The notes: generated by a model not told the origin, from the letters alone. Positions 3,850 to 61,151 are shown, counted from the stretch's first letter. The stretch: DNA of 64,000 nucleotides from an uncultured Acidimicrobiales bacterium (GCA_963700995.1 CAVOZP010000004.1:170321-234320), one strand, 5' to 3'. Made by a program: numbers and translations.

Positions 3850-5604
3850 TCAGGTGCGGAGCTCGTCGGGATAGGGGAACCACCGGAGGTGCTCGAAGTC
3901 GGCGTTGGTGTCGGGCGGGCCGATCGGTTCGGGCAGTGCCTCGCCGGCTCGGGCGCACAGGTCGCGCGCAACCCCGATGAGGCCGTCGAAGTCGACCGAG
4001 CGCTCACGGTGTCGGCGATTCTCGAAGCGCATCTCGCCCGAGCTGTAGCTGATGTCGAAGAGGCTCATCGGCGGCTCGGCCTGGCCGTTGCGGTGATGCC
4101 ACAGGCCCGAGTCGGGCTCGAACCGGTAGTAGGGCATGAGCGCCGCACCCTGATCGGCGATCAGGTGCACCGCCGCCAGGAGGTACTGGAACGTCGAGTC
4201 GTCGATGAAGTAGTTGAAGCTCAGCCGCACCCATCCCGGCTTGATGCCCTCGCAGCCGCGATTGATCTCGCGCTCGAACTCATGGGACCGTTCGAGATCG
4301 ATGCCGAGCAAACGGTGCCCGTAGGGCCCTGCACACGAACACCCGCCACGCGACTGGATGCCGAAGAGATCGTTGAGCAACGCCACCACGTAGTTGTGGT
4401 GCAGCATTCCCGCACCGTGGCGGACGATGAACGAGACGATAGACAGGCGTTCGGCTTCGTGGCTGCCGAGAATGTGGAGGTTCGGGTTGGCCGACCACGA
4501 CGTGATCGCCCGGTGCACGAAGTCGTCCTCCCGTCGGCGGATCTCGTCGACCCCGACGGCCTCTTTGAGCTGGAAGATGAGCCCGGCTCGGATGGCGCCG
4601 ACGATGTCGGGGGTACCGCCTTCTTCACGATGCTGCACATCGGGCAGGTAGTCATGGTGGGTGGGGTTCACATAGGCCACCGTTCCACCCCCCGGCACAC
4701 TGGGCACCCGGTTGGCGAACAGCTCTTTGCGGGCCACGAGCACTCCCGGCGTGCCCGGACCGCCGATGAGCTTGTGGGGGGAGATGAAGACGGCGTCCTT
4801 GTAGGCCAGATCGGGCTGTCCGGTGTCGTCGACCTCGTCGGCTGAAAGCATCTCGATCGATACGTACGGCGCAGCGGCCGCGAAATCCCAGAACGACAGT
4901 GCCCCGTGGTCGTGCAGCAGGCGCGAGACGGCGGCGGTGTCGGTGAGGATTCCCGTGACGTTCGATGCGGCCGAGAACGAACCGATCTTCAGCGGGCGAT
5001 CGGCGTGGCGCTCGAGCTCGGAGCGGAGGTGAACGAGGCTGATGTGACCGTCGGCATCCTCGTCGATGGTCACGACATCAGCGATCGACTCCCGCCACGG
5101 CAACTCGTTGGAATGGTGCTCGAAGGGACCGATGAACACGACCGGGCGTTCCACCGGAGGAATCGTGGCCACGAATCCGTAACGATCGTCGAGGACCGAG
5201 GGCACGCGCAGGCCCATCACCCCGATCAGCTTGTCGATGGCATGGGTGGCGCCACTGCCGCAGAACACCACCACGTGTTCGTCGCCGGCGCCGGTGCAGC
5301 GCCGGATCATCTCCCTGGCCTCTTCCCGGAACCGGGTGGTCTGGAGGCCGGTACCCGACGACTCGGTGTGAGTGTTCGCGTACAGCGGTAGCACGACGTC
5401 GCGGAGATAGTCCTCGATGAACGACAGTGAGCGACCGGATGCGGTGTAGTCGGCGTACACCACGGGTCGGGATCCGAAGGGGGTGACCACCGTGTCGTCG
5501 CGTCCGATGACCGCGCCGCGGACGGTGTCGATCAGTTCGGCAGCAGACATGTCTCCATTGTGCCCGACCTTGCCGGTCTGGGACGCGGCCCCGTCGCCGT
5601 TCAT
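3850..5604 (-). CDS. Class-V aminotransferase-fold PLP enzyme (cysteine desulfurase / C-S lyase-like) with a long C-terminal extension
   Basis: 'YADYTASGRSL..IEDY...LYANTHTESSGTG' and the PLP-lysine region 'ISPHKLIGGPGTPGVLVARKELF'. Start taken at ATG 5604, which overlaps the upstream ORF stop (gcATGAac). Confidence 0.85.
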   Translation of the reverse strand: MNGDGAASQTGKVGHNGDMSAAELIDTVRGAVIGRDDTVVTPFGSRPVVYADYTASGRSLSFIEDYLRDVVLPLYANTHTESSGTGLQTTRFREEAREMIRRCTGAGDEHVVVFCGSGATHAIDKLIGVMGLRVPSVLDDRYGFVATIPPVERPVVFIGPFEHHSNELPWRESIADVVTIDEDADGHISLVHLRSELERHADRPLKIGSFSAASNVTGILTDTAAVSRLLHDHGALSFWDFAAAAPYVSIEMLSADEVDDTGQPDLAYKDAVFISPHKLIGGPGTPGVLVARKELFANRVPSVPGGGTVAYVNPTHHDYLPDVQHREEGGTPDIVGAIRAGLIFQLKEAVGVDEIRRREDDFVHRAITSWSANPNLHILGSHEAERLSIVSFIVRHGAGMLHHNYVVALLNDLFGIQSRGGCSCAGPYGHRLLGIDLERSHEFEREINRGCEGIKPGWVRLSFNYFIDDSTFQYLLAAVHLIADQGAALMPYYRFEPDSGLWHHRNGQAEPPMSLFDISYSSGEMRFENRRHRERSVDFDGLIGVARDLCARAGEALPEPIGPPDTNADFEHLRWFPYPDELRT

Positions 5605-5843
5605 GCGAAGTCCATGACGGCCACGTCGGGTGCCGGCGTGCGGGAGCACTCCCCGAGATGACGGGGACCGCGGGAGCGGAAGGCACGCTCGACGAGGTCT
5701 CCGTAGGAACGGCGGACCGCGGCGCGTTGTTCGTCTCGGGCGCGTGCATTGCGGGGCTTCACCACCCGACCGATCGTGGAGGCCATCGACACCGGCGACA
5801 CGAGGGAGCCGTAGCCGAAGACCCAGAGCGAGTCAGTTGCCAC
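5601..5843 (-). CDS. Small 80-aa ORF with a gamma-glutamylcyclotransferase/ChaC-like N-terminal motif
   Basis: GTG at 5843 overlaps the M20 stop (GTGGCAACTGA). Its stop overlaps the next ATG (ATGA). GC-rich third positions. N-terminus 'ATDSLWVFGYGSLVSP' resembles the 'FGYGSL' GGCT/ChaC signature. The rest is Arg-rich and much shorter than known family members. Confidence 0.45.
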   Translation of the reverse strand: MATDSLWVFGYGSLVSPVSMASTIGRVVKPRNARARDEQRAAVRRSYGDLVERAFRSRGPRHLGECSRTPAPDVAVMDFA

Positions 5844-7059
5844 CGGGGCCCGGGCTCGCGAAGAACTCGTGGACCGAGGCGACCACCGTACGGACGCCGA
5901 CGGCGATGGCCCGTTCATCGACGTCGAAGCGGCCGGCGTGGAGGTCGAGCCGGGGTCCGCCGGCCTCGACGTTGTGTACGCCGAGTCGGATGTAGGTACC
6001 GGGCACCTCGCGAGTGAACCACGCGAAGTCATCACCGCCCCAGCTCTGCACCGCCGGCGTGACCGCATCGGTCCCGAACTCGGCCGTGGCGGCTCGACGA
6101 ACGATGTCGGTGACCACCTCGGCATTCACGAGCGGGGGCACACCGTGGGTGTAGTCGAGCTCCCAGCCGGCGTCGGTGCCGGCCAACAGCTTCTCGAGCT
6201 CGTCACGCACCACGTCGGACATGCGCTCCCAGACGTGGACCGAGGGTGTGCGCACCGACGCACGGAGCTCGCAGTTCGTCGGGATGACATTGGCTGCGTC
6301 CCCGGCATGGATCGCGCCGAAGACCAACTTGACGTTGTCGGGGCCGCCGAGCGCAGACGCAACGTTGTGAGGCAGCTCGGACACGATCCTCGCGGCCAGC
6401 GTGACCATGTCGACGGTTTCTTCGGGCCGGGCAGTGTGACCCCCGGGTCCGGTCAGAAGGATTCGAGCGATATCGGCGGCGCTGGTGATGGGTCCGGCCT
6501 TGAGGCCGATGCGTCCGACATCGACCTTGGGGTCGCAGTGGACGCCGATGATGCCGTCGACGCCGTGGAGGGCGTCGTCGGCAATCGCGTCGAGGGCGCC
6601 GCCAGGCACGCGCTCCTCGGCGGGTTGGAAGATCATCCGCAACCGCCCGGGCAGCTCGTCGGCATGGTGGGCGAAGTACAGCGCCGCGCCGAGCATCACC
6701 GTGGTGTGGACGTCGTGACCGCAGGCATGGGAGACACCGGGGACCTGGCTCCGGTAGGGGACGTCCTTCTCGTCGTGCATACCGAGCGCGTCGAGATCGG
6801 CCCGTAGGGCCAGGATGCGCCCAGCCACCTGACCGGCATCGAGCTCACACAGCAGTCCGGTGCCACTCGACAGACGTCGGGGTGAGAGGCCAGCCAGCTC
6901 GAGTCGTTCGAGGACGATGTCGGTGGTTGCGTGTTCCTGGCCGCTCAGCTCGGGGTGGGCGTGCAGGTTGCGCCGGAGCGCGATCAGGCCTTCACCGTGC
7001 TCGGTCAGCCAGGCATCGATCGATCGTTCGACGGCATGGGCCGTGGGCGCGGCGGTCAT
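5833..7059 (-). CDS. M20D-family amidohydrolase (N-acyl-amino-acid / hippurate hydrolase-like)
   Basis: 408 aa. 'LRRNLHAHPELSGQEHATT', 'ALRADLDALGM', 'HACGHDVHTTVMLGAA', 'RMIFQPAEE' are typical M20D blocks. Confidence 0.9.
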   Translation of the reverse strand: MTAAPTAHAVERSIDAWLTEHGEGLIALRRNLHAHPELSGQEHATTDIVLERLELAGLSPRRLSSGTGLLCELDAGQVAGRILALRADLDALGMHDEKDVPYRSQVPGVSHACGHDVHTTVMLGAALYFAHHADELPGRLRMIFQPAEERVPGGALDAIADDALHGVDGIIGVHCDPKVDVGRIGLKAGPITSAADIARILLTGPGGHTARPEETVDMVTLAARIVSELPHNVASALGGPDNVKLVFGAIHAGDAANVIPTNCELRASVRTPSVHVWERMSDVVRDELEKLLAGTDAGWELDYTHGVPPLVNAEVVTDIVRRAATAEFGTDAVTPAVQSWGGDDFAWFTREVPGTYIRLGVHNVEAGGPRLDLHAGRFDVDERAIAVGVRTVVASVHEFFASPGPGGN

Positions 7060-8207
7060 GCCCGGGGACGGTCGTCAGCGAGTTCCTTGGCGAGGTGATG
7101 CACCACGTCGACGAGACTACCGCCGCCAGCGATCACGCGACGTTGCCGCGCGGTGCCGGAACCACCGTCCAGGATCGTGAGCACGTCGCCGAGCTCGGCG
7201 ACGGAACCCAGTTCCTCGGCGATCGGCCTGAGCTCCTCGACGAGCTCGACCACCAGGTCGCGAACCGGACGCCGGTGCACGGTGCCGAGCTCGAGATCTT
7301 CGACGATGAGTGATGCCTCGATGCCGTAGCGCCCGGCGAGCCAGCGATTCTCACGGACGGTCCAGTCACGGGGTGGCGCCGGCAGGTCGTCGTCGTCGAT
7401 GCGGCGGTTGCACCACACCACCAGCGCCTGGGCCAGCGCGGTCAGAGCCGTGGCCTCGGTGAGGGTCGGTGTGGCATCGCACATGCGGAACTCGATGGTT
7501 CCGAAGTCGGGGTGCGGTCGGATGTCCCACCACACCTCTCGGATCGACGAGATGCATCCCGAGTCGAGCAAGGTCGACATGAATGCCTCGAAGTCCACCC
7601 AACCGGAGATGTGGGGCGGGAGACCGGCGGTCGGAAGCGCCTCGAACACCTTCGACCTCGCCGAGGCGAGACCGGAGTCCTCCCCCTCGAAGAACGGGCT
7701 CGATGCCGAGAGCGCGAGGAAGAGCGGAAGGTGGCGGGTCAGCTCATTGATCACGGCGATGGCCCGTTCGCCGTCGACGACCCCGACGTGTACGTGCATC
7801 CCACAGATCAGCAGCCGTCGCGCCGGCCACTGCATCGCTTCGATGAGCTCGTGATAGCGGGGGGAGGGGCTGATGAGCTGCGCACTGGCCATGCCGAACG
7901 GGTGCGTTCCCGAGCTGATGGGCATCATCCCGCGACGGTCGAGCGCCTCGGTGAGCTCGTCGAGGGTCGCTCGGAGATCGCGGTGCGCCTCGGCCGGGCT
8001 CCGACAGACATCGGTGATGAGCTCCACCGTGCTCTGGAAGAGCTCGTGCTTGGCGCGGGGGTGCTCACCACCCGGATGGGTCAGCCCCATCTCCTCGAGC
8101 ACCTCGGTGGCCGCCGAGACGAGTTCGCCGGTCTCGCGATCGACGAGATGGAACTCGACCTCGACACCCACGGTGGGGAAGTCGTTGCGAGTGAATTCGA
8201 TCGTCAT
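7056..8207 (-). CDS. Carboxylate-amine ligase, glutamate-cysteine ligase family 2 (YbdK/GCS2)
   Basis: 'FTVGVEVEFHLVD', 'HPFG', 'CGMHVHVGV' GCS2 blocks. Start at ATG 8207 ('MTIEF'). Its stop overlaps the M20 start by 4 bp. Confidence 0.9.
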   Translation of the reverse strand: MTIEFTRNDFPTVGVEVEFHLVDRETGELVSAATEVLEEMGLTHPGGEHPRAKHELFQSTVELITDVCRSPAEAHRDLRATLDELTEALDRRGMMPISSGTHPFGMASAQLISPSPRYHELIEAMQWPARRLLICGMHVHVGVVDGERAIAVINELTRHLPLFLALSASSPFFEGEDSGLASARSKVFEALPTAGLPPHISGWVDFEAFMSTLLDSGCISSIREVWWDIRPHPDFGTIEFRMCDATPTLTEATALTALAQALVVWCNRRIDDDDLPAPPRDWTVRENRWLAGRYGIEASLIVEDLELGTVHRRPVRDLVVELVEELRPIAEELGSVAELGDVLTILDGGSGTARQRRVIAGGGSLVDVVHHLAKELADDRPRA

Positions 8208-8381
8208 GATGCGCGGTCTCGGCCCCTCGTTTCGCCAGGCCGACAATGGTACGCGAGCCGAGCCCGGGGCGGCTCGTGAGCCGTCTGGTCGCGGCTGAGT
8301 TTATCGCGCAATCCGAACACGTTCTGACTCAATGTGGGGGTGAAACCCCACTCAGCGTGGTAAACGGCTACGGTCACCGTC

Positions 8382-27036: not shown

Positions 27037-27465
27037 TCAGTGGGCGAGCGACGCGTCGACGAACTGGCGGATGCCCTCGATCGGCATGGCACCGACCTGT
27101 CGGCCGACCTCGACGCCACCGGCGAACAGCAGCATCGTCGGAATGCCCTGCACCGCGAATCGGGCCGACACCGTGGGGGCCTCGTCGACATTCACCTTCG
27201 CAATACGCAACGACCCAGCCCGTTCCACCGCAAGCTGTTCGAGCGCCGGAGCAACCATACGGCACGGGCCACACCACGGGGCCCAGAGATCGACCAACAC
27301 AGGGAGCTTGGACTGTTCGATGACCGCGGAGAACTCGCCGGCGCCGAGATCGACCAACCAGGGGAGGTCGGCCCGGCATTCGCCGCAACGCGGTCGGCCA
27401 CGAGACACGAGGGGAACCCGGTTGCGGGTTCCACAGCTCGGGCAGGCGATCACACGGTCGGCCAT
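27037..27465 (-). CDS. trxC: Thioredoxin 2 (zinc-finger N-terminal extension)
   Basis: 'CPSCGTRNRV...PRCGEC' CxxC-x-CxxC zinc finger followed by the 'VDLWAPWCGPCRMVAP' active site and 'GIPTMLLF'. Confidence 0.9.
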   Translation of the reverse strand: MADRVIACPSCGTRNRVPLVSRGRPRCGECRADLPWLVDLGAGEFSAVIEQSKLPVLVDLWAPWCGPCRMVAPALEQLAVERAGSLRIAKVNVDEAPTVSARFAVQGIPTMLLFAGGVEVGRQVGAMPIEGIRQFVDASLAH

Positions 27466-27582
27466 CGTTGCATTCTCGGTCGGTTCCGGAGCCTCGCCCA
27501 GAGCCGAACGTCCTGTCGTTGCTGCTGCGGTGGCGGTCACGTGGCGACGCTGGAGCGCGGCCCGGCGCAACCGGCTGACGGC

Positions 27583-39623: not shown

Positions 39624-41591
39624 CTACTCCAGGCCGGCGGCGGTGACCACTTCGAGCAGTCTCTCCCCGTACCGGGCGCGCCGGATGGCGCTGAAGCCGT
39701 CGATGGCGGCGAGGTCGGTCTCGGTCACGGGTCTCGTATCGGCGATCACGGCGAGGACCTGGTCGCTCACCACTGCGGCCGGATCGACACCCGTCGCCCG
39801 GGCTGCCGAATCCCGCCAAGCGAGCAGGCTCGCGTGCAACGCATCGCGGGCCATCACGAATGGCGGGGTGGAGTCGAGCTCCTGACGGCGCGTTCGAAGT
39901 GACTCACGGACACCCGGATCGGGTGCGGTCGGAAGGTCGGTCATGAGCCGGTGCTCGTCGAGGACCCGCAAGAAGCCCGATCGAGCGCGGTCCGACGTGT
40001 GATCACCGAAGGTGCGCCGGCGAGCCCAGTGCAGGCTCAGGTGCGTGCGGGCCCGGGTCATGGCCACGTGGAGGAGCCGCCGCTCCTCGGCCACCGCCTC
40101 GGGTGACGTTGCCTGCCAAATGGGGACGTAACCCTCTTCGAGCCCGGCCAGATGCACGACCGACCATTCGAGGCCCTTGGCGGCGTGAAAGGTGGCGATG
40201 TCGATGGCGTCGCCCGACGGCCCGATGACCTCGCCTGCCACCGTGGTGCCCAACAGCTCGGCGAAGGCACGCGCCGTGCAGTCGCGATCGAGCCGCAGAT
40301 GGTCATAGGCCAGGCGCACCACGACGTCGAGGTGCTCAACGGCATCGTTGACCTTCAGCTCGGTCAAGTCGATATCACGCAGATCGCCGAGCGCATCGCC
40401 GAGACGACCGGGATGGCCACGAAGGAGTTGAAGGGCAAGGACGACCGCAGGGTGCTCGACGAAGCTGCGCCCTCCGCGGACCCGATAGGGGATGCCGGCG
40501 GCGGCGAGCGCCTCCTGGATGAGCACGGTCTGGGCGTTGGTGCGAACGAGCACCGCCTGCGTCGACCAGGGGGTGCCCGGTGGGTGCGCGTCGCGTGCGG
40601 CCCGGGCAATACCGGCCGCCTCGAGGCGGTCATCGTCGTGGCCGACGATCACAGGAGGACCAGCGGTCGGTTGGTGCACCGTGGGAGTCGACCGGTCGGC
40701 GGCCAGGACGAGGTGAGCGATTCGCACCACTTCGGGCGACGACCGGAAGTTGTCGGTCAGCTCGATGGTCCGGCCGCCGAGGCGCGTGTCGAAGTCGACG
40801 AGGTGACTGGCATCGGCACCGTTCCACCCGTAGATCGCCTGATCGGGGTCGCCCACCACACACAGGTCGGGCCGATCGGCTCTCCACGCCTCGAGCAGGG
40901 CGAATTGCAGCGGGTTGACGTCCTGGAACTCGTCGACGAACAGATGCCGGAACCGCCACGCCATGGCGGCGGCGTAGTCGGCGTCGGCGCGAAGGTCGCG
41001 TAGGGCCAGGGCGAGCAGGTCGTCGAAGTCGACCAGGCGACGTTTGCGCTTCAGGGCGGCAAAGGCGCGGAACGCCTCGACGAGCTCTGAAGGGTTGCCC
41101 ACCGGTCGCCGCCGTGCCGCAGCGGCCGCCGCCTCGTAGCCCTCGGGCTCGATCATGCGTGCCCTCGTCCAGTCGTGCTCGGCGAGCCCGGCTCGAGCCG
41201 CGTCGATACTGACGCCTCCCATGGCCTCGCCGAAGAGCTTGGTCCGCCGATCGATGAGCTTGGGTGCCGAGATGTCGCGGTCGTTCCAGCGCGCACGCAG
41301 CTGTGCGTAGGCCAGGGAGTGGAACGTTCCCGCCGCGACATCGCCGCGGAGACCAAGCTGGTCCAGGCGGTCGCCCAGCTCCGACGCGGCCTTGCGGGTG
41401 AAGGTGAGCACCAGCGTGTGCGCCGGGTCGAGCGACTCGGTGGCCGCCCGCCAGGCGACCCGACGAGTGAGCACGCGGGTCTTGCCCGAGCCGGCACCGG
41501 CGACGATGCACAGGAGGGGGTCGTCGGCGGTGACCGCCTCTCGCTGGGCGTCGCTCAGCCCGATGAGCAGCGAATCGCGGTCGGCCTCCAC
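39624..41591 (-). CDS. UvrD/PcrA-family ATP-dependent DNA helicase with C-terminal HRDC-like domain (UvrD2-like)
   Basis: 'IVAGAGSGKTRVLTRR' Walker A, 'LFVDEFQDVNPLQ', 'VVGDPDQAIYGWNGA', 'TFHAAKGLEWSVVHL', 'RRLLHVAMTRA'. C-terminus 'VVSDQVLAVIADTRPVTETDLAAIDGF' is HRDC-like. Confidence 0.85.
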   Translation of the reverse strand: MEADRDSLLIGLSDAQREAVTADDPLLCIVAGAGSGKTRVLTRRVAWRAATESLDPAHTLVLTFTRKAASELGDRLDQLGLRGDVAAGTFHSLAYAQLRARWNDRDISAPKLIDRRTKLFGEAMGGVSIDAARAGLAEHDWTRARMIEPEGYEAAAAAARRRPVGNPSELVEAFRAFAALKRKRRLVDFDDLLALALRDLRADADYAAAMAWRFRHLFVDEFQDVNPLQFALLEAWRADRPDLCVVGDPDQAIYGWNGADASHLVDFDTRLGGRTIELTDNFRSSPEVVRIAHLVLAADRSTPTVHQPTAGPPVIVGHDDDRLEAAGIARAARDAHPPGTPWSTQAVLVRTNAQTVLIQEALAAAGIPYRVRGGRSFVEHPAVVLALQLLRGHPGRLGDALGDLRDIDLTELKVNDAVEHLDVVVRLAYDHLRLDRDCTARAFAELLGTTVAGEVIGPSGDAIDIATFHAAKGLEWSVVHLAGLEEGYVPIWQATSPEAVAEERRLLHVAMTRARTHLSLHWARRRTFGDHTSDRARSGFLRVLDEHRLMTDLPTAPDPGVRESLRTRRQELDSTPPFVMARDALHASLLAWRDSAARATGVDPAAVVSDQVLAVIADTRPVTETDLAAIDGFSAIRRARYGERLLEVVTAAGLE

Positions 41592-41652
41592 GGGCCGACC
41601 CTACGCAGAGGCGATGGCACCGCGGCGGACCGCACTGCCTAGGGTTCTTCCG

Positions 41653-45254: not shown

Positions 45255-45584
45255 CTAGGGCTCGACAACGATCCAGCCGCGACGCTGCATTTCCGCCGCG
45301 AGGCGTTCGGTGGGGATGGCACGGAGGGCCTGGTCGGCAGCAGTGAGCCGCTCAGCGGGCTCGGCCGCAACCGGAGCGACTCCGCTGTGCTCGGCCTCTT
45401 CGAGCTGCTCGATGAACGCAACTGCCTCGTCTCTGGTGAACTTGCCGCCGGCCTGGCGCTGCGTGAAGCCCATCGGACCCCGTGCGTCACGGAAGTCGGT
45501 GTGACCGGCATTCTCGAGGAGCGTCAGCAACTCCCGTACCTGCCGAGTCGATGCCGGGGGACCCGATGGTTGACCGAATGCCAT
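45255..45584 (-). CDS. Hypothetical protein (109 aa)
   Basis: Start 'MAFGQPSGPPASTRQVRELLTLLENAGHTDFRDARGPMGFTQRQAGGKFTRDEA'. GC3-biased. No family recognised. Confidence 0.55.
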   Translation of the reverse strand: MAFGQPSGPPASTRQVRELLTLLENAGHTDFRDARGPMGFTQRQAGGKFTRDEAVAFIEQLEEAEHSGVAPVAAEPAERLTAADQALRAIPTERLAAEMQRRGWIVVEP

Positions 45585-45706
45585 CCGGACAGTCTGGCCG
45601 ACGCGGCCGACGAAGACGACGCTTCTCCGTGATCTGCTTCTCGGCCGGCTCGCTCGGCGCACCCACTCGGTGCGCGCTCGGCTGCCGGGCGGGCACACTT
45701 GCAGCC

Positions 45707-46489
45707 ATGGCCACACTCCTCTGCCTCCATGCCCACCCCGACGACGAGGCCATCGCCACCGCCGGGCTCATCATGCGAGCCTCTGCTGCCGGACATCGCG
45801 TCGTGCTGGTCGTCGCGACCACCGGTGAGCTCGGACTCGACCCCCTCGAGGGTCTAGCCGAAGGCGAGTCGTTGGCGGATCGTCGCCGGGCCGAGATGCT
45901 GCGGTCCGCCGAGATCCTCGGGGTGCACCGGACCGAATTCCTCGGCTACCGCGACTCGGGGATGAACGGCGACCACACCAACCACGATCCTGCCAGTTTC
46001 TGGCAGGCCGAGATCGACCATGCAGCGAGGCGGCTCGTCACGCTGGTCGCCGAAGAGACCATCGACGTGCTCACGATCTACGACGACCACGGGGGCTATG
46101 ACCACCCCGATCACATCCAAGTACACCGGGTGGGCACCCGCTTCGCCGAGCAGGCCGGCATCGACGAGGTGTACTGGGCCACCATGAACCGAGACGAGAT
46201 CGCTCGCCAGCTCGCGACGGCCGCCGAGCTGTACGACCAAGAGCCGCCCGAGGTCGACACGGAGACCTTCGGCATGGCCGAGGGCGAGCTCACCCATGCC
46301 GTCGACGTCGGCTCCTTCATCGAGCGCAAGCGGGCGGCGATGCGAGCCCACGCAAGCCAGATCCGTGAGGACTCGTTCTTCCTCTCGATGCCCGACGAGG
46401 TGTTCGCCCTGGCCTTCGGCACCGAGTGGTTCCATCGACCGGGAGCACAACCGGGCAACGAGACGATCCCGATCGCCGTTCCGTCATGA
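45707..46489 (+). CDS. PIG-L/LmbE-family deacetylase
   Basis: 'LLCLHAHPDDEAIATAG', 'VVLVVATTGELG', 'DHPDHIQVH' zinc-site motifs. Confidence 0.85.
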   Translation: MATLLCLHAHPDDEAIATAGLIMRASAAGHRVVLVVATTGELGLDPLEGLAEGESLADRRRAEMLRSAEILGVHRTEFLGYRDSGMNGDHTNHDPASFWQAEIDHAARRLVTLVAEETIDVLTIYDDHGGYDHPDHIQVHRVGTRFAEQAGIDEVYWATMNRDEIARQLATAAELYDQEPPEVDTETFGMAEGELTHAVDVGSFIERKRAAMRAHASQIREDSFFLSMPDEVFALAFGTEWFHRPGAQPGNETIPIAVPS

Positions 46490-57505: not shown

Positions 57506-57979
57506 TCAGAGGTACTGGGGAAGTGTCTCGGCGACCTGTTCGGGCGTGATCTGGGGCGGGAAGCGCGCGACGACCTTGCCGCTGCCATCGACGAGGAACT
57601 TCTCGAAGTTCCAGGTGATGTCGGGCGCGTCGGCCTCGCCGGGCTGTTCGGCCTTGAGCCACTTGTACAGCTCGGCGGCGCCGTCGCCATTCACCTCGAT
57701 CTTGGAGAACATCGGGAAGTTCACGTCGAACTTCGAGGTGACGAACTCGAGGATCTCCTCGTCGCTGCCCGGTTCCTGGGCGCCGAACTGGTTGCACGGA
57801 AATCCCAGAACCTGGAAGCCGTCGATCTCGTTGTGAATCGCACGCAGACCTGCGTACTGAGGGGTGAGACCTCAGGCGCTGGCGACGTTGACGACGAGGC
57901 ACACCTGGTCACGGAACCGGTCGAACGCGATCTGCTCACCGGTGATGGAGGTCATCTCGAGATCATGGAAGTTGGTCAT
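57506..57979 (-). CDS. gpx: Glutathione peroxidase with in-frame TGA (probable selenocysteine, U36) at the catalytic position
   Basis: A continuous minus-strand frame from ATG 57979 gives MTNFHDLEMTSITGEQIAFDRFRDQVCLVVNVASA[TGA]GLTPQYAGLRAIHNEIDGFQVLGFPCNQFGAQEPGSDEEILEFVTSKFDVNFPMFSKIEVNG...WNFEKFLVDGSGKVVARF...*. The TGA (57872-57874) aligns with the Cys of the 'NVASKCGLTPQY' motif (E. coli BtuE, from memory). All other GPx blocks are intact on both sides. Confidence 0.85.
57840..57875 (-). promoter_or_regulatory. SECIS-like recoding structure: two adjacent hairpins starting at the UGA
   Basis: The RNA is CUGAGG-UCUCACC-CCUCAG-UACGCA-GGUC-UGCGUGC. Hairpin 1 pairs CUGAGG, which contains the UGA, with CCUCAG. 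Hairpin 2 pairs GUACGCA with UGCGUGC (7 bp, one G-U) around a GGUC loop. The loop starts 21 nt after the UGA. Confidence 0.6.
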
Positions 57980-58012
57980 CGCGCCATGTTGGCATGGATG
58001 GCACCACCAGGC

Positions 58013-61009
58013 TCACTCGCCGGCGACGATCGCCAACACGGCATCGCCGTACTGTTCGAGCTTGGCCGGGCCGACGCCTTTCACCCGCGCCAGTTCGACG
58101 AGCGACTCGGGTCGCGCCGAGGCGATCGCCACCAGGGTCTTGTCGTCGAACACGGTGTAGGCGGGCTTGGTGCCCCGTACGTCGTTGCGGAACGCCCGCA
58201 TCTCGTCGAACACTCGAACGGCGTGCTCGTCGACGTCGCCGTGGCGGCCGGCGAGCGCACCTCGCTGACGGCCCAGCGTCTCGACCGCGTCGCCGAGCCC
58301 GAACCGGCGGGTCGCCGCGCCGTTGGTGGCCAGCGCGGCCGCGGGCTCGATGTCGGTGATGGTCCACTCGGTGCCCTGGTCGACCAGGACGAGGCCCGGC
58401 ACGGCCATGACCACGGTGCGATCGAGCAAGGGGTGGTCGGCGGCGGCCGACTTTCGCACGACAGTGGTCGTCCTCGAGGAGCGAGTCACCTCTTCGGGAA
58501 GGTGCTCGGGGGGCTCGGTGGTGAGCTCGGCAACGAACGGGCTCGGATGGGTTCCGGTGACGATGGCCGCGTGATCGGACGCCCGAGTGATGGCGACATG
58601 GAAGAGGCGTCGTTCTTCCTCGGTGTCGTCGGCCAGGCGGTGGGGAAACTGGTCGGTGTCGGCGAGGTGAACCACGACGAGGGGCCATTCGAGACCTTTG
58701 ACTCGGTGCACCGTGGACAGCTGAACGCCAGCGGGATCGCGTTTGGTCACGAGCTGGGATCGCAGCCATGCCTCGAAGGTGGCGGCGTCGGTGTGGAGTG
58801 ACGCCAGCTGCAGAATGGCCTGGAGGTCGTCGCTCTGGGCTGATCGGTTCATGCCGTGGCGGCTGTTGTCGAGCGTGGCGACCGAACCGGCCAGATCCAT
58901 CTGGTCGACGAGGGTCGAGACGATGCGAAACGTCGACGCGCCCTTGGCGGCCATCGTTCGGAGCCGGTCGATGTCGGCCGCGAAGCTGTGGACGCGGTCG
59001 GTGTCGCGGTCGTTGTTGAGTCGCTCGGCCAGCTTGTGGAGGTCTTCGACGGTGTTCTGTTCGGCCACCCAGTCGGTGATGCGAGGGTGGAGAGGTCGCG
59101 ACGGCCGGCGCAGGGCCTCGACGACGTCGTTGTCGATGAAGCGTCGGGCCGAGGCGAGCCGCAGCCAGGCGAGAACGGCCCGGATGGCGGTGCGGTCGGC
59201 AAATTCCGCGCCCACTCCGCCCGTGATCGGCACACTTCGGCCGGTGAGGGCGACCTGTACCGGTGCAATGGTGGCATTCACTCGGGTCAACACGGCGATG
59301 TGCGCTGGGGGAGTGCCGTCGGCGATGGCCTGCTCGACCAGCTCGACCGACGCAGCGACGGGATCGTCCGATGAGGTGACGGTGTAGCCGTCAGTCCTAT
59401 CGGATGAGGCTCGGATGGTCTTGGCCACCCGGCGGCGATTGTGGCGCACCAGCATGTCCGCGGCGGCGACGACGCCGCCGGGGCAGCGGTAGTTCACCTC
59501 GAGGGGGTGGTCGCCGGCGCCGGGGAAGAGTGTGGCGAAGTCGATGAGTGAGCCGGGATCGGCGCCGTTGTAGCCGTAGATCGTCTGGTCGTCGTCGCCG
59601 ACGCCGAACACCGCGCCACCGGGTGCGCCGAGCAGCCGGACCAGGAGGAGGTGGGCCGGGGTGAGGTCCTGGAACTCGTCGACCAGGAGCACCCGGCACG
59701 CCCGCTGCGCCGCCGCCCGGGCGGCCGGTTGGGTGAGCAACACATCGATCGCCCGGTAGATCTGATCGTCGAAGTCGAGCGCGGCTTCGCGGTCGAGCGC
59801 CTTGCGGTACTGCGGCCACACGTCGACGAGCCCGTCGACGTCGCCGTTGTACCGAGCCTCGACCTCGGTAGGGCTCACGAGACCGAGACGCAGCAGCGAC
59901 AGGGCGTCGATCCACGGGGCGATGGGGTCGACGTTGCGCCGCTTGGGCACCGTGACCAGCTTGGCGATGATGCGGCGCACATCGGGTTCGTCGAGCGTTC
60001 GCAGGCGGCGGGACTGGGGTGCGAACGGTGCCCGGCCGTTCACGATGGCGAGCGCCAACGCATTGAACGTCTGGATCTGGAGGCCACGCAGATCGCAGGT
60101 TCGCTCGCTCATCTCGACCTGTGCACGCTTGTTGAACGCCACGAGGGTGACGGCGCTCGGCGGCAGGTTCCAGGCCGTGAGCAGGTGGCGGGCGCGCTCG
60201 GTGAGCACGCGGGTCTTGCCCGAGCCCGCGGGGGCGATGATGCGCGCTGCGCCACCGACATGCGTGACGGCGGCGAGCTGGTCCGGTGCCAGCTCCGCAG
60301 GCGACACGTTGGCCGCCGGTGCCGCGAGCGACCCGTGTTCGACGGCCACGGCGTGCACCACGGGGATGCCGAGCAGCGGATCGTGGTGCCGCACCGGCCC
60401 ACCGTCGAGCCACCGCAGTACGCCGTCGGGGCCTACCACATCGCCCGTGGTGCCGTCGGAGACCGATGCACCGAGCGCGACCGCCCGATCGACGAGCTCC
60501 CAACGGGGTTCGCCACGGGCGTCGATGGCGTTCGACCAGACGAGATGGTGCACCTCGTCGAGCGGGAAGAAGAACCGGGGCCCGAGCTCGTAGGCCGCCT
60601 CGTTGGTCGACAATGCCGGACAGTCGGCGAAGTCGACGTTCAGCTCGATGACGAGTGCCGCGGCACCGGTCGCCGCCACGCGCAACCGGGCCAGCAACGG
60701 TTCGGGTGTTGCCAGCTCGTTCGCCCCGACGACGATGCGCTCACAACCGGCCCACTCGTCGGGTGCAGGCTGGTCGGCACCGACGATCACGTTGCGGCCG
60801 AGTGAGTCGGGGCCTCGCAGCAGTGCCGCTCGTACCCTGGTTACCGGTGCGCTCGGCCGAGGATCGGCGGCAGATTCTGCTGCGGCGAACGGCGCGGGAT
60901 CGGTTCTGTTGGCGCCAGCGACTTCGGCCCCACGAGCGCGCTGCCAACACTCCTTCACTTCGTCGGGTCGGTCGTGGGTCAGGCCGCAGTACACGCAGGA
61001 GATCGGCAC
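58013..61009 (-). CDS. Large UvrD-family helicase (998 aa) with a ~250-aa N-terminal extension and a C-terminal HRDC domain
   Basis: 'IIAPAGSGKTRVLTERA', 'LLVDEFQDLTPAH', 'GVGDDDQTIYGYNGA', 'STVHRVKGLEWPLVVV', 'RRLFHVAITRA'. C-terminus 'YTVFDDKTLVAIASARPESLVELARVKGVGPAKLEQYG' is HRDC. The N-terminus 'MPISCVYCGLTHDRPDEVKECW' is unassigned. Confidence 0.85.
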   Translation of the reverse strand: MPISCVYCGLTHDRPDEVKECWQRARGAEVAGANRTDPAPFAAAESAADPRPSAPVTRVRAALLRGPDSLGRNVIVGADQPAPDEWAGCERIVVGANELATPEPLLARLRVAATGAAALVIELNVDFADCPALSTNEAAYELGPRFFFPLDEVHHLVWSNAIDARGEPRWELVDRAVALGASVSDGTTGDVVGPDGVLRWLDGGPVRHHDPLLGIPVVHAVAVEHGSLAAPAANVSPAELAPDQLAAVTHVGGAARIIAPAGSGKTRVLTERARHLLTAWNLPPSAVTLVAFNKRAQVEMSERTCDLRGLQIQTFNALALAIVNGRAPFAPQSRRLRTLDEPDVRRIIAKLVTVPKRRNVDPIAPWIDALSLLRLGLVSPTEVEARYNGDVDGLVDVWPQYRKALDREAALDFDDQIYRAIDVLLTQPAARAAAQRACRVLLVDEFQDLTPAHLLLVRLLGAPGGAVFGVGDDDQTIYGYNGADPGSLIDFATLFPGAGDHPLEVNYRCPGGVVAAADMLVRHNRRRVAKTIRASSDRTDGYTVTSSDDPVAASVELVEQAIADGTPPAHIAVLTRVNATIAPVQVALTGRSVPITGGVGAEFADRTAIRAVLAWLRLASARRFIDNDVVEALRRPSRPLHPRITDWVAEQNTVEDLHKLAERLNNDRDTDRVHSFAADIDRLRTMAAKGASTFRIVSTLVDQMDLAGSVATLDNSRHGMNRSAQSDDLQAILQLASLHTDAATFEAWLRSQLVTKRDPAGVQLSTVHRVKGLEWPLVVVHLADTDQFPHRLADDTEEERRLFHVAITRASDHAAIVTGTHPSPFVAELTTEPPEHLPEEVTRSSRTTTVVRKSAAADHPLLDRTVVMAVPGLVLVDQGTEWTITDIEPAAALATNGAATRRFGLGDAVETLGRQRGALAGRHGDVDEHAVRVFDEMRAFRNDVRGTKPAYTVFDDKTLVAIASARPESLVELARVKGVGPAKLEQYGDAVLAIVAGE

Positions 61010-61151
61010 GGGCCGACCCTATCCAGCGGGTGTGTCGGCCCCGGCGACGCCCGGGCGAAGCAGGTCGTTGCCGAGAGAATTCTGCCCCGACCCGTCGAAT
61101 CCACGACGAACGCGACGTCTTGTCCCTGAACCCCTACAAGGAGAAGTTCAG

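Follow-up and report, generated by a model that had tools for sequence, protein, structure and literature searches.

Does an in-frame UGA at the catalytic codon of a glutathione peroxidase (GPx) gene mark a damaged gene, or is it decoded as selenocysteine (Sec)? The question is raised by a minus-strand locus in the 64-kb stretch of DNA analysed here (referred to below as the window). A first, sequence-only reading of this DNA had proposed that a complete GPx gene is hidden there by ORF finding, and that a hairpin directly 3′ of its single internal UGA directs the insertion of Sec. We followed up this proposal by analysing the frame and its product, the RNA element downstream of the UGA, and the same codon and element in related loci.

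The glutathione peroxidase gene and its catalytic codon

Re-translation of the minus strand revealed a frame that is open from the ATG at 57979-57977 to the TGA stop at 57508-57506, the sole interruption being a TGA at 57872-57874. The complete coding sequence (57506-57979, minus strand) consists of 157 codons plus the stop, with the interrupting TGA as codon 36, while ORF listing yields only two fragments of it, of 35 aa (57872-57979) and 72 aa (57506-57724). The translation includes VVNVASA*GLTPQY, LGFPCNQFGAQEP and WNFEKFLV, and, with Cys set at codon 36, it matched the Pfam GSHPx family (PF00255) with E=5.8e-40 and 135.7 bits (cut-off 27), residues 4-109 of the window protein covering profile positions 1-108 of 108. 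The continuous frame, the complete GPx with all three signature blocks and the truncation expected from gene callers, all put forward in the sequence-only reading, are thus borne out. The catalytic tetrad of GPx enzymes consists of Sec or Cys, Gln, Trp and Asn. In the window translation these residues can be read off as U36, Q68 (in FGAQEP) and W123-N124 (in WNFEKF), and all of them are kept in the alignment with E. coli BtuE. The closest solved structures are yeast Gpx3/Hyr1, which is the best PDB match, and monomeric GPx of the GPx4 type.

We compared the window gene with eight relatives to estimate selection on either side of the UGA (Nei-Gojobori). The dN/dS ratio was 0.18-0.36 over the 35 codons upstream and 0.19-0.41 over the 110 codons downstream. 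Purifying selection acts on both halves of the gene, indicating that both are maintained as protein in one frame; with values of about 0.2-0.4 on either side, the flanks are as undecayed as had been supposed.

The scan for promoters and terminators around the GPx gene found nothing, and the neighbouring genes (helicase, epimerase and RecG) were not conserved in synteny in the related loci. The helicase is UvrD/PcrA-like with a RecQ-type C-terminal (HRDC-like) match; it occupies 58013-61018 (minus strand), in the same frame as the GPx gene, and 33 nt separate its end from the GPx start. A second UvrD/PcrA-like helicase with a RecQ-type C-terminal (HRDC-like) match is found at 39624-41600 (minus strand). 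Elsewhere in the window there are four thiol-metabolism genes, coding for a SufS-like cysteine desulfurase (3850-5832, minus strand), a YbdK/GshA-type glutamate-cysteine ligase (7056-8300, minus strand), an MshB/Mca-like deacetylase (45467-46489, plus strand) and a thioredoxin (27037-27582, minus strand). The SufS-like desulfurase is 660 aa long and weakly matches the selenocysteine lyase SclA (E=5e-10, far under the cut-off of that model).

To see what relatives carry at codon 36, we scanned for homologues with one genome per species and kept the 80 closest related loci. TGA was present at the aligned codon in 59 of the 80, in Ilumatobacteraceae and other Acidimicrobiia, in Pseudomonadales/OM182 and other Gammaproteobacteria, and in Myxococcota, while 22 homologous genes of the same set had TGC or TGT. 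Carriers of the TGA form include Salinilacustrithrix flava (complete genome NZ_CP133888.1, locus L005), the complete genomes OM182 CP121333.1 and OZ244560.1, and the cultured Ilumatobacter nonamiensis YM16-303 (L020). The window GPx is closest to those of Ilumatobacteraceae metagenome-assembled genomes (MAGs), with 72-76% amino-acid identity; this similarity, together with the G+C content of 67%, places the window in Acidimicrobiia. The UGA at 57872-57874 (minus strand), which we read as Sec (U36, the peroxidatic residue), is matched in the alignment by the Cys of BtuE and of the 22 Cys-type homologues. E. coli btuE indeed encodes LLIVNVASKCGLTPQY, the motif that the sequence-only reading had quoted, and its catalytic Cys, in NVASKCGLTPQY, falls on the window TGA at 52% identity between the two proteins. 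A search of the window for other in-frame TGA codons with coding signal on both sides returned five sites, all of them ordinary gene boundaries or antisense frames.

We noted a preference for U at the third position of the codon preceding the UGA in the alignment of Sec genes. Where this codon is for Ala, it is GCU in 15 sequences and GCC in 2, although the share of GCT among the window's Ala codons is no more than about 6%; the window itself has GCC at this position. The third-position U may reflect a context effect on decoding.

The hairpin downstream of the UGA

Over the 40 nt that start with the UGA, the RNA folds into a pair of neighbouring hairpins, UGAGG/CCUCA and GUACGCA-GGUC-UGCGUGC, with stems of 5 and 7 bp in the minimum free energy (MFE) structure of -15.1 kcal/mol. 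The apical hairpin (57840-57857, minus strand) consists of the 7-bp stem GUACGCA/UGCGUGC closed by a GGUC tetraloop at 57850-57847, and has an energy of -8.5 kcal/mol. Its loop begins 21 nt after the UGA, and in this the hairpin is as originally described. The lower mini-hairpin (57858-57874, minus strand), UGAGG ... CCUCA, holds the UGA itself; it is weaker and partly conserved. The sequence-only reading had drawn the two stems as CUGAGG/CCUCAG and GUACGCA/UGCGUGC. Both stems exist, but as drawn they share G57857 and are not both complete, the first being limited to at most 5 bp.

We compared the element with the consensus of bacterial SECIS (bSECIS) elements by Zhang and Gladyshev, coded from PMC13188914 (Fig. 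2) as a loop of 3-9 nt, a stem of 4-16 bp, a spacer of 16-37 nt and an MFE of -7.5 kcal/mol or lower, with G at loop position 1 or 2, usually followed by G or U. The window element, with its 4-nt GGUC loop, 7-bp stem, 21-nt spacer and -8.5 kcal/mol, lies within all of these limits, as expected from the original proposal. The limits are loose, as 179 of the 1,441 TGA triplets in the window (12.4%) also pass them by chance, and the fold taken alone departs only modestly from the ordinary (z=-2.4 over 40 nt and z=-1.0 over 61 nt). The significance of the element, therefore, rests on comparison with orthologues and not on the single sequence. The SECIS families of Rfam gave no match, either at the gathering threshold over the window or at E up to 10 over 57700-58000. 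Rfam models have been reported to fail on bacterial SECIS elements (bioRxiv 10.64898/2026.04.03.716425), and since Rfam represents these elements poorly we treat this result as uninformative.

The 58 Sec-type sequences (57 orthologues and the window) could be aligned over the element without gaps. The hairpin GUACGCA-GGUC-UGCGU(A/G)C is present in 58 of 58, with 98.8% of the cells of the apical helix paired, and the string CAGUACGCAGGUCUGCGU(A/G)C is nearly invariant. In the loop, G34 and G35 are invariant and U36 (alignment columns) is conserved in at least 90%. One apical pair is U-A in 37 sequences and U-G in 21. At another level of change, four sequences, representing at most two independent events, show a compensatory replacement of G-C by A-U at one apical pair, which turns the peptide AGLR into TGLC; the stem is kept at the price of two amino-acid replacements. 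Covariation is thin, with this one compensated pair only, because the element is almost invariant. In the lower helix, which contains the UGA, 83% of cells are paired and there is no compensatory change; RNAalifold recovers the apical helix only. CCU, the Pro codon that pairs with the A of the UGA in this lower helix, occurs in 30 of 43 Sec genes but in 4 of 19 Cys genes (Fisher p=7e-4).

A covariance model built from the 57 orthologues, with the window left out, found a single significant match on both strands of the 64 kb, at 57834-57874 (minus strand), with 62.7 bits and E=3.7e-21; the next-best match in the window scored 7 bits. This match delimits the full recoding element of 41 nt. Two further checks proposed with the sequence-only reading, on conservation of the hairpin and on its fit to a covariance model, thus came out in its favour, as had the one on the codon in orthologues, the former with synonymous change suppressed and one pair compensated, the latter with a model derived from orthologues alone.

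The bSECIS limits separate the two forms of the gene: 53 of the 57 Sec orthologues are within them and none of 21 Cys homologues (Fisher p=2e-15). The four exceptions fall short on the energy cut-off alone; three of them (L016, L033 and L043) have the weaker A-U variant of the stem, and the fourth (L038) keeps the pair through G-U wobbles only.

It could be argued that the hairpin is not a SECIS element at all, and that it merely accompanies the conserved peptide QYAGLR or acts as a regulatory RNA or as a motif in the DNA, with the UGA decoded by an unrelated route. QYAGL is indeed common in Cys homologues too, the near-invariance of the element limits the support from covariation, and Rfam has no match. 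However, Cys homologues with the same QYAGL use varied codons and form no hairpin. Codon entropy at positions +5 to +10 (Q-Y-A-G-L-R) is 0-0.45 bit in the Sec genes and 0.9-1.9 bit for the same residues in the Cys genes, while the flanking codons of the Sec genes have 1.4-2.3 bit; the collapse of synonymous variation at +5 to +10 is confined to the TGA genes. Moreover, the Sec genes share one set of codons that are rare locally: in the window CCT accounts for 7% of Pro, GCA for 9% of Ala, GGT for 18% of Gly and CGT for 12% of Arg codons. This use of rare codons is the one feature of the hairpin that is striking in the window sequence by itself. The change of G-C to A-U, which alters the peptide and preserves the stem, also argues against a by-product of the protein sequence, and the spacing, loop and apex fit both the bSECIS consensus and the SECIS of E. 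coli fdhF. We consider a role other than that of a SECIS element very unlikely.

A second variant of the SECIS, GUACGC-CGGGUU-GCGUAC, was observed at codons +7 to +9 after the TGA in five gammaproteobacterial Sec-GPx genes (L044, L053, L054, L056 and L058). Here the stem is of 6 bp and the loop of 6 nt, in place of 7 bp and GGUC.

Reading of the UGA

Natural variants of the codon show what happens to the hairpin in genes that have Cys instead of Sec. One of them, L029, encodes a Cys form but falls within the Sec forms in the protein tree. Its sequence is ...ACAGGCCTGCGT..., in which the stem is broken and the loop is GGCC (L029:3097-3141). Another Cys form, P0071/L081 (L081:1501-1680), has TGT and CAATACGCAGGTCTTTGT, with CTT and CAA substitutions in the hairpin; its near-identical Sec counterpart is L038, where the stem is kept by wobble pairs. 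As judged from these sequences, both Cys forms look like recent reversions from Sec to Cys with subsequent loss of the SECIS. Two further loci are worth recording. An Ilumatobacteraceae MAG (L045:3001-3940) carries a tandem pair of GPx genes, the first with TGC (L045:3106) and the second with TGA and the SECIS (L045:3573). A metagenomic contig (L087, 606-608) has CGA (Arg) at the Sec codon and an intact hairpin; an inactive variant, a mutation of very recent date and an error of assembly are all conceivable.

The UGA is conserved and corresponds to Cys in homologues, the hairpin is conserved, covaries and is constrained at synonymous sites, and selection is purifying on either side of the UGA. 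Taken together, these observations support the reading that the UGA at codon 36 is very probably decoded as Sec, giving a GPx4-like glutathione peroxidase of the monomer type.

It is also conceivable that the UGA is read through or reassigned without selenium, either as Trp or Gly (genetic codes 4 and 25) or by near-cognate Cys or Trp. Three public protein records of the closest relatives (P0001, P0004 and P0013) have Trp at the catalytic position, and the Sec pathway is able to insert Cys when selenium is scarce. The DNA underlying these records, however, is TGA (L088:107-109), so their sources translated TGA as a sense codon, which is not valid under table 11; the GPx family is mis-annotated in databases. 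TGA is the stop codon of 26 of the 34 confident ORFs in the window, the GPx gene among them, which indicates that the code of this organism does not have TGA as a sense codon. In addition, the codon specifies the peroxidatic residue, at which an enzyme needs Cys or Sec to be active, and a SelB-type hairpin would have no role in such decoding. Insertion of an ordinary amino acid at the UGA, thus, appears highly improbable to us.

A pseudogene or a sequencing error, with the TGA arising in an ordinary Cys-GPx gene by nonsense mutation or through a wrong base call, would accord with the splitting of the frame by gene callers, with the single base that separates TGA from TGC or TGT and with the lack of visible Sec machinery in the 64-kb window, but we give it next to no credence, as it is effectively refuted by conservation: the same TGA recurs in 59 independent genomes of three phyla, purifying selection acts on the gene both before and after the UGA, and the hairpin is linked to the TGA and missing from Cys forms. 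The same three observations bear out the view of the sequence-only reading that Sec decoding is likelier than a nonsense mutation.

Decoding of the UGA as Sec would proceed as follows. Translation would start at the ATG at 57979, and with the ribosome at codon 36, the UGA, SelB carrying GTP and Sec-tRNA(Sec) would be recruited by the hairpin that lies 18-35 nt further downstream, its stem GUACGCA/UGCGUGC presenting the G and U of the GGUC tetraloop. Sec would then be inserted in competition with RF2, and translation would run on to the true stop at 57506. It is possible that the weaker stem enclosing the UGA helps to position or shield the codon. Both the binding of SelB and the insertion of selenium at the UGA are inferred.

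Searches for tRNA-Sec over the 64-kb window and 60 related loci gave no match. SelA, SelB and SelD were absent from the approximately 50 ORFs of the window in NCBIfam and Pfam scans, and tblastn searches with the E. coli SelA, SelB and SelD proteins gave no matches in the window or in any of the related loci. We assume, from the pattern of conservation, that the machinery is present in the host genome. It is consistent with this assumption that all four genes, selA, selB, selC and selD, have been reported from a different order of the Acidimicrobiia, the Actinomarinales (bioRxiv 10.64898/2026.04.03.716425).

Relation to known systems and to the Sec-GPx family

The apex of the hairpin is identical to that of the experimentally characterised SECIS of E. 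coli fdhF, the gene for formate dehydrogenase H. The fdhF sequence given in the sequence-only reading, TGACACGGCCCATCGGTTGCAGGTCTGCACC..., agrees fully (100%) with the fdhF gene of over 5,400 E. coli genomes, and the 10-mer GCAGGTCTGC is, as had been suggested, common to fdhF and the window. This identical apex, GCAGGUCUGC, includes three closing pairs (A-U, C-G and G-C) and the GGUC loop; in both genes it is found just 3′ of the UGA and is translated in one and the same frame, as Ala-Gly-Leu. The two elements differ in the spacer, which is 21 nt in the window and 18 nt in fdhF, and in the lower part, which in the window is a separate mini-hairpin containing the UGA, whereas in fdhF there is one long helix. 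They also differ in the upper stem: the window has a perfect 7-bp helix, while fdhF has a bulged U (U17). The bulged U in the upper stem of the SECIS is required by E. coli SelB; no bulged U occurs in the hairpin stem in any of the 58 Sec sequences, a point that counts against the reading as Sec.

At the protein level, the window GPx shares the three signature blocks and the catalytic Gln, Trp and Asn with BtuE and yeast Gpx3/Hyr1, which are Cys-type, thioredoxin-dependent 2-Cys enzymes. In contrast to these, it has Sec in place of the peroxidatic Cys and Val80 in place of the resolving Cys, and the insertion specific to BtuE is missing. With mammalian GPx4 it shares the active-site Sec, the lack of a resolving Cys, a short monomer-type architecture and strong sequence matches in the PDB. 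Another feature in common with GPx4 is a Cys nine residues before the Sec (VCLVVNVASAU in the window), the GPx4 counterpart of this stretch being VCIVTNVASQU. GPx4, however, uses a eukaryotic SECIS in the 3′ UTR with SBP2 and eEFSec, whereas the window gene has an in-frame bacterial hairpin and, presumably, SelB.

We analysed the resolving Cys across the family. Its canonical position in 2-Cys thioredoxin-dependent GPx was defined by the F-C-x block, about 8 residues ahead of FP(M/I)F, and corresponds in the window to codon 80 (57740-57742, minus strand), which encodes Val and not Cys. Of the 21 Cys-type homologues, 19 have Cys in this column, as against none of the 58 Sec-type sequences; Sec forms have Ala or Val there, and BtuE has Cys (YCTT). 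Other cysteines are present in Sec forms, at residue 27 in 35 of the 58, including the window, and at residue 102 in 36 of the 58, the window not among them. The lack of a resolving Cys in Sec forms suggests a GPx4-like mechanism that operates without one. The direct reductant of the selenenic acid would probably be a low-molecular-weight thiol or thioredoxin, on the pattern of GPx4-type enzymes, in contrast to the internal-disulfide route of enzymes of the BtuE/Gpx3 type.

To our knowledge, no bacterial Sec-GPx has been verified biochemically, and the family is a computationally predicted one. The window gene belongs to this family of bacterial selenoproteins, predicted since 2004-2005. It has in common with the other bacterial GPX-like selenoproteins the PF00255 domain, the UGA at the peroxidatic position in a U-G-x-T motif, a SECIS within the coding sequence directly downstream and the existence of many Cys homologues; it differs from the published set by its host, a MAG of Acidimicrobiia (Ilumatobacteraceae-like). 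A GPx-like selenoprotein was first predicted by Kryukov and Gladyshev in Treponema denticola, and five bacterial Sec-GPx sequences with a bacterial SECIS were then found in Sargasso Sea data and 40 in GOS data (PMC1088965, PMC2398784, PMC1794560, PMC13188914). Reviews of 2022 and 2026 list 'GPX-like protein, PF00255, UxxT' among the families 'predicted with high confidence' (PMC13188914). The literature agrees with the earlier statement that Sec-GPx is known in bacteria but rare (PMC1088965, PMC2398784, PMC13188914). NCBIfam contains no Sec-specific GPx model. A non-exhaustive literature search found no published statement placing Sec-GPx in Acidimicrobiia or Ilumatobacter, and limited searches found no prior explicit statement of the breadth of the family in Acidimicrobiia, of a near-frozen SECIS common to three phyla, or of the anticorrelation between Sec and the resolving Cys.

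These observations lead us to a broader proposal, which we advance tentatively and would rate at a little under an even chance. Sec-GPx may form a distinct, horizontally mobile lineage spread over Acidimicrobiia, marine and freshwater Gammaproteobacteria, and Myxococcota, with a near-frozen 18-nt SECIS whose apex, identical to that of fdhF, could be read by many SelB proteins. The gain of Sec would be coupled mechanistically to the loss of the resolving Cys, converting a 2-Cys thioredoxin peroxidase into a GPx4-like 1-Sec enzyme, and reversion to Cys would be followed by decay of the SECIS.

The window gene leaves the current understanding of Sec decoding unchanged. The gene is short and its SECIS has an fdhF-like apex, making it a convenient biochemical test case for bacterial Sec-GPx. 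The set of orthologues is a clean natural experiment on SECIS evolution, with invariant synonymous sites, a costly compensatory pair and decay of the hairpin after reversion from Sec to Cys, and the strict anticorrelation of Sec with the resolving Cys is relevant to the question of why Sec has been kept. The family is also an annotation trap, as standard ORF finding gives two fragments and some public records show Trp or Arg at the codon; because of such mis-annotation, reports on these abundant aquatic Acidimicrobiia and Gammaproteobacteria understate both their antioxidant repertoire and their dependence on selenium. If Sec-GPx does form a mobile lineage of the kind proposed above, its range, and hence the use of Sec in antioxidant defence, would extend to aerobic Acidimicrobiia.
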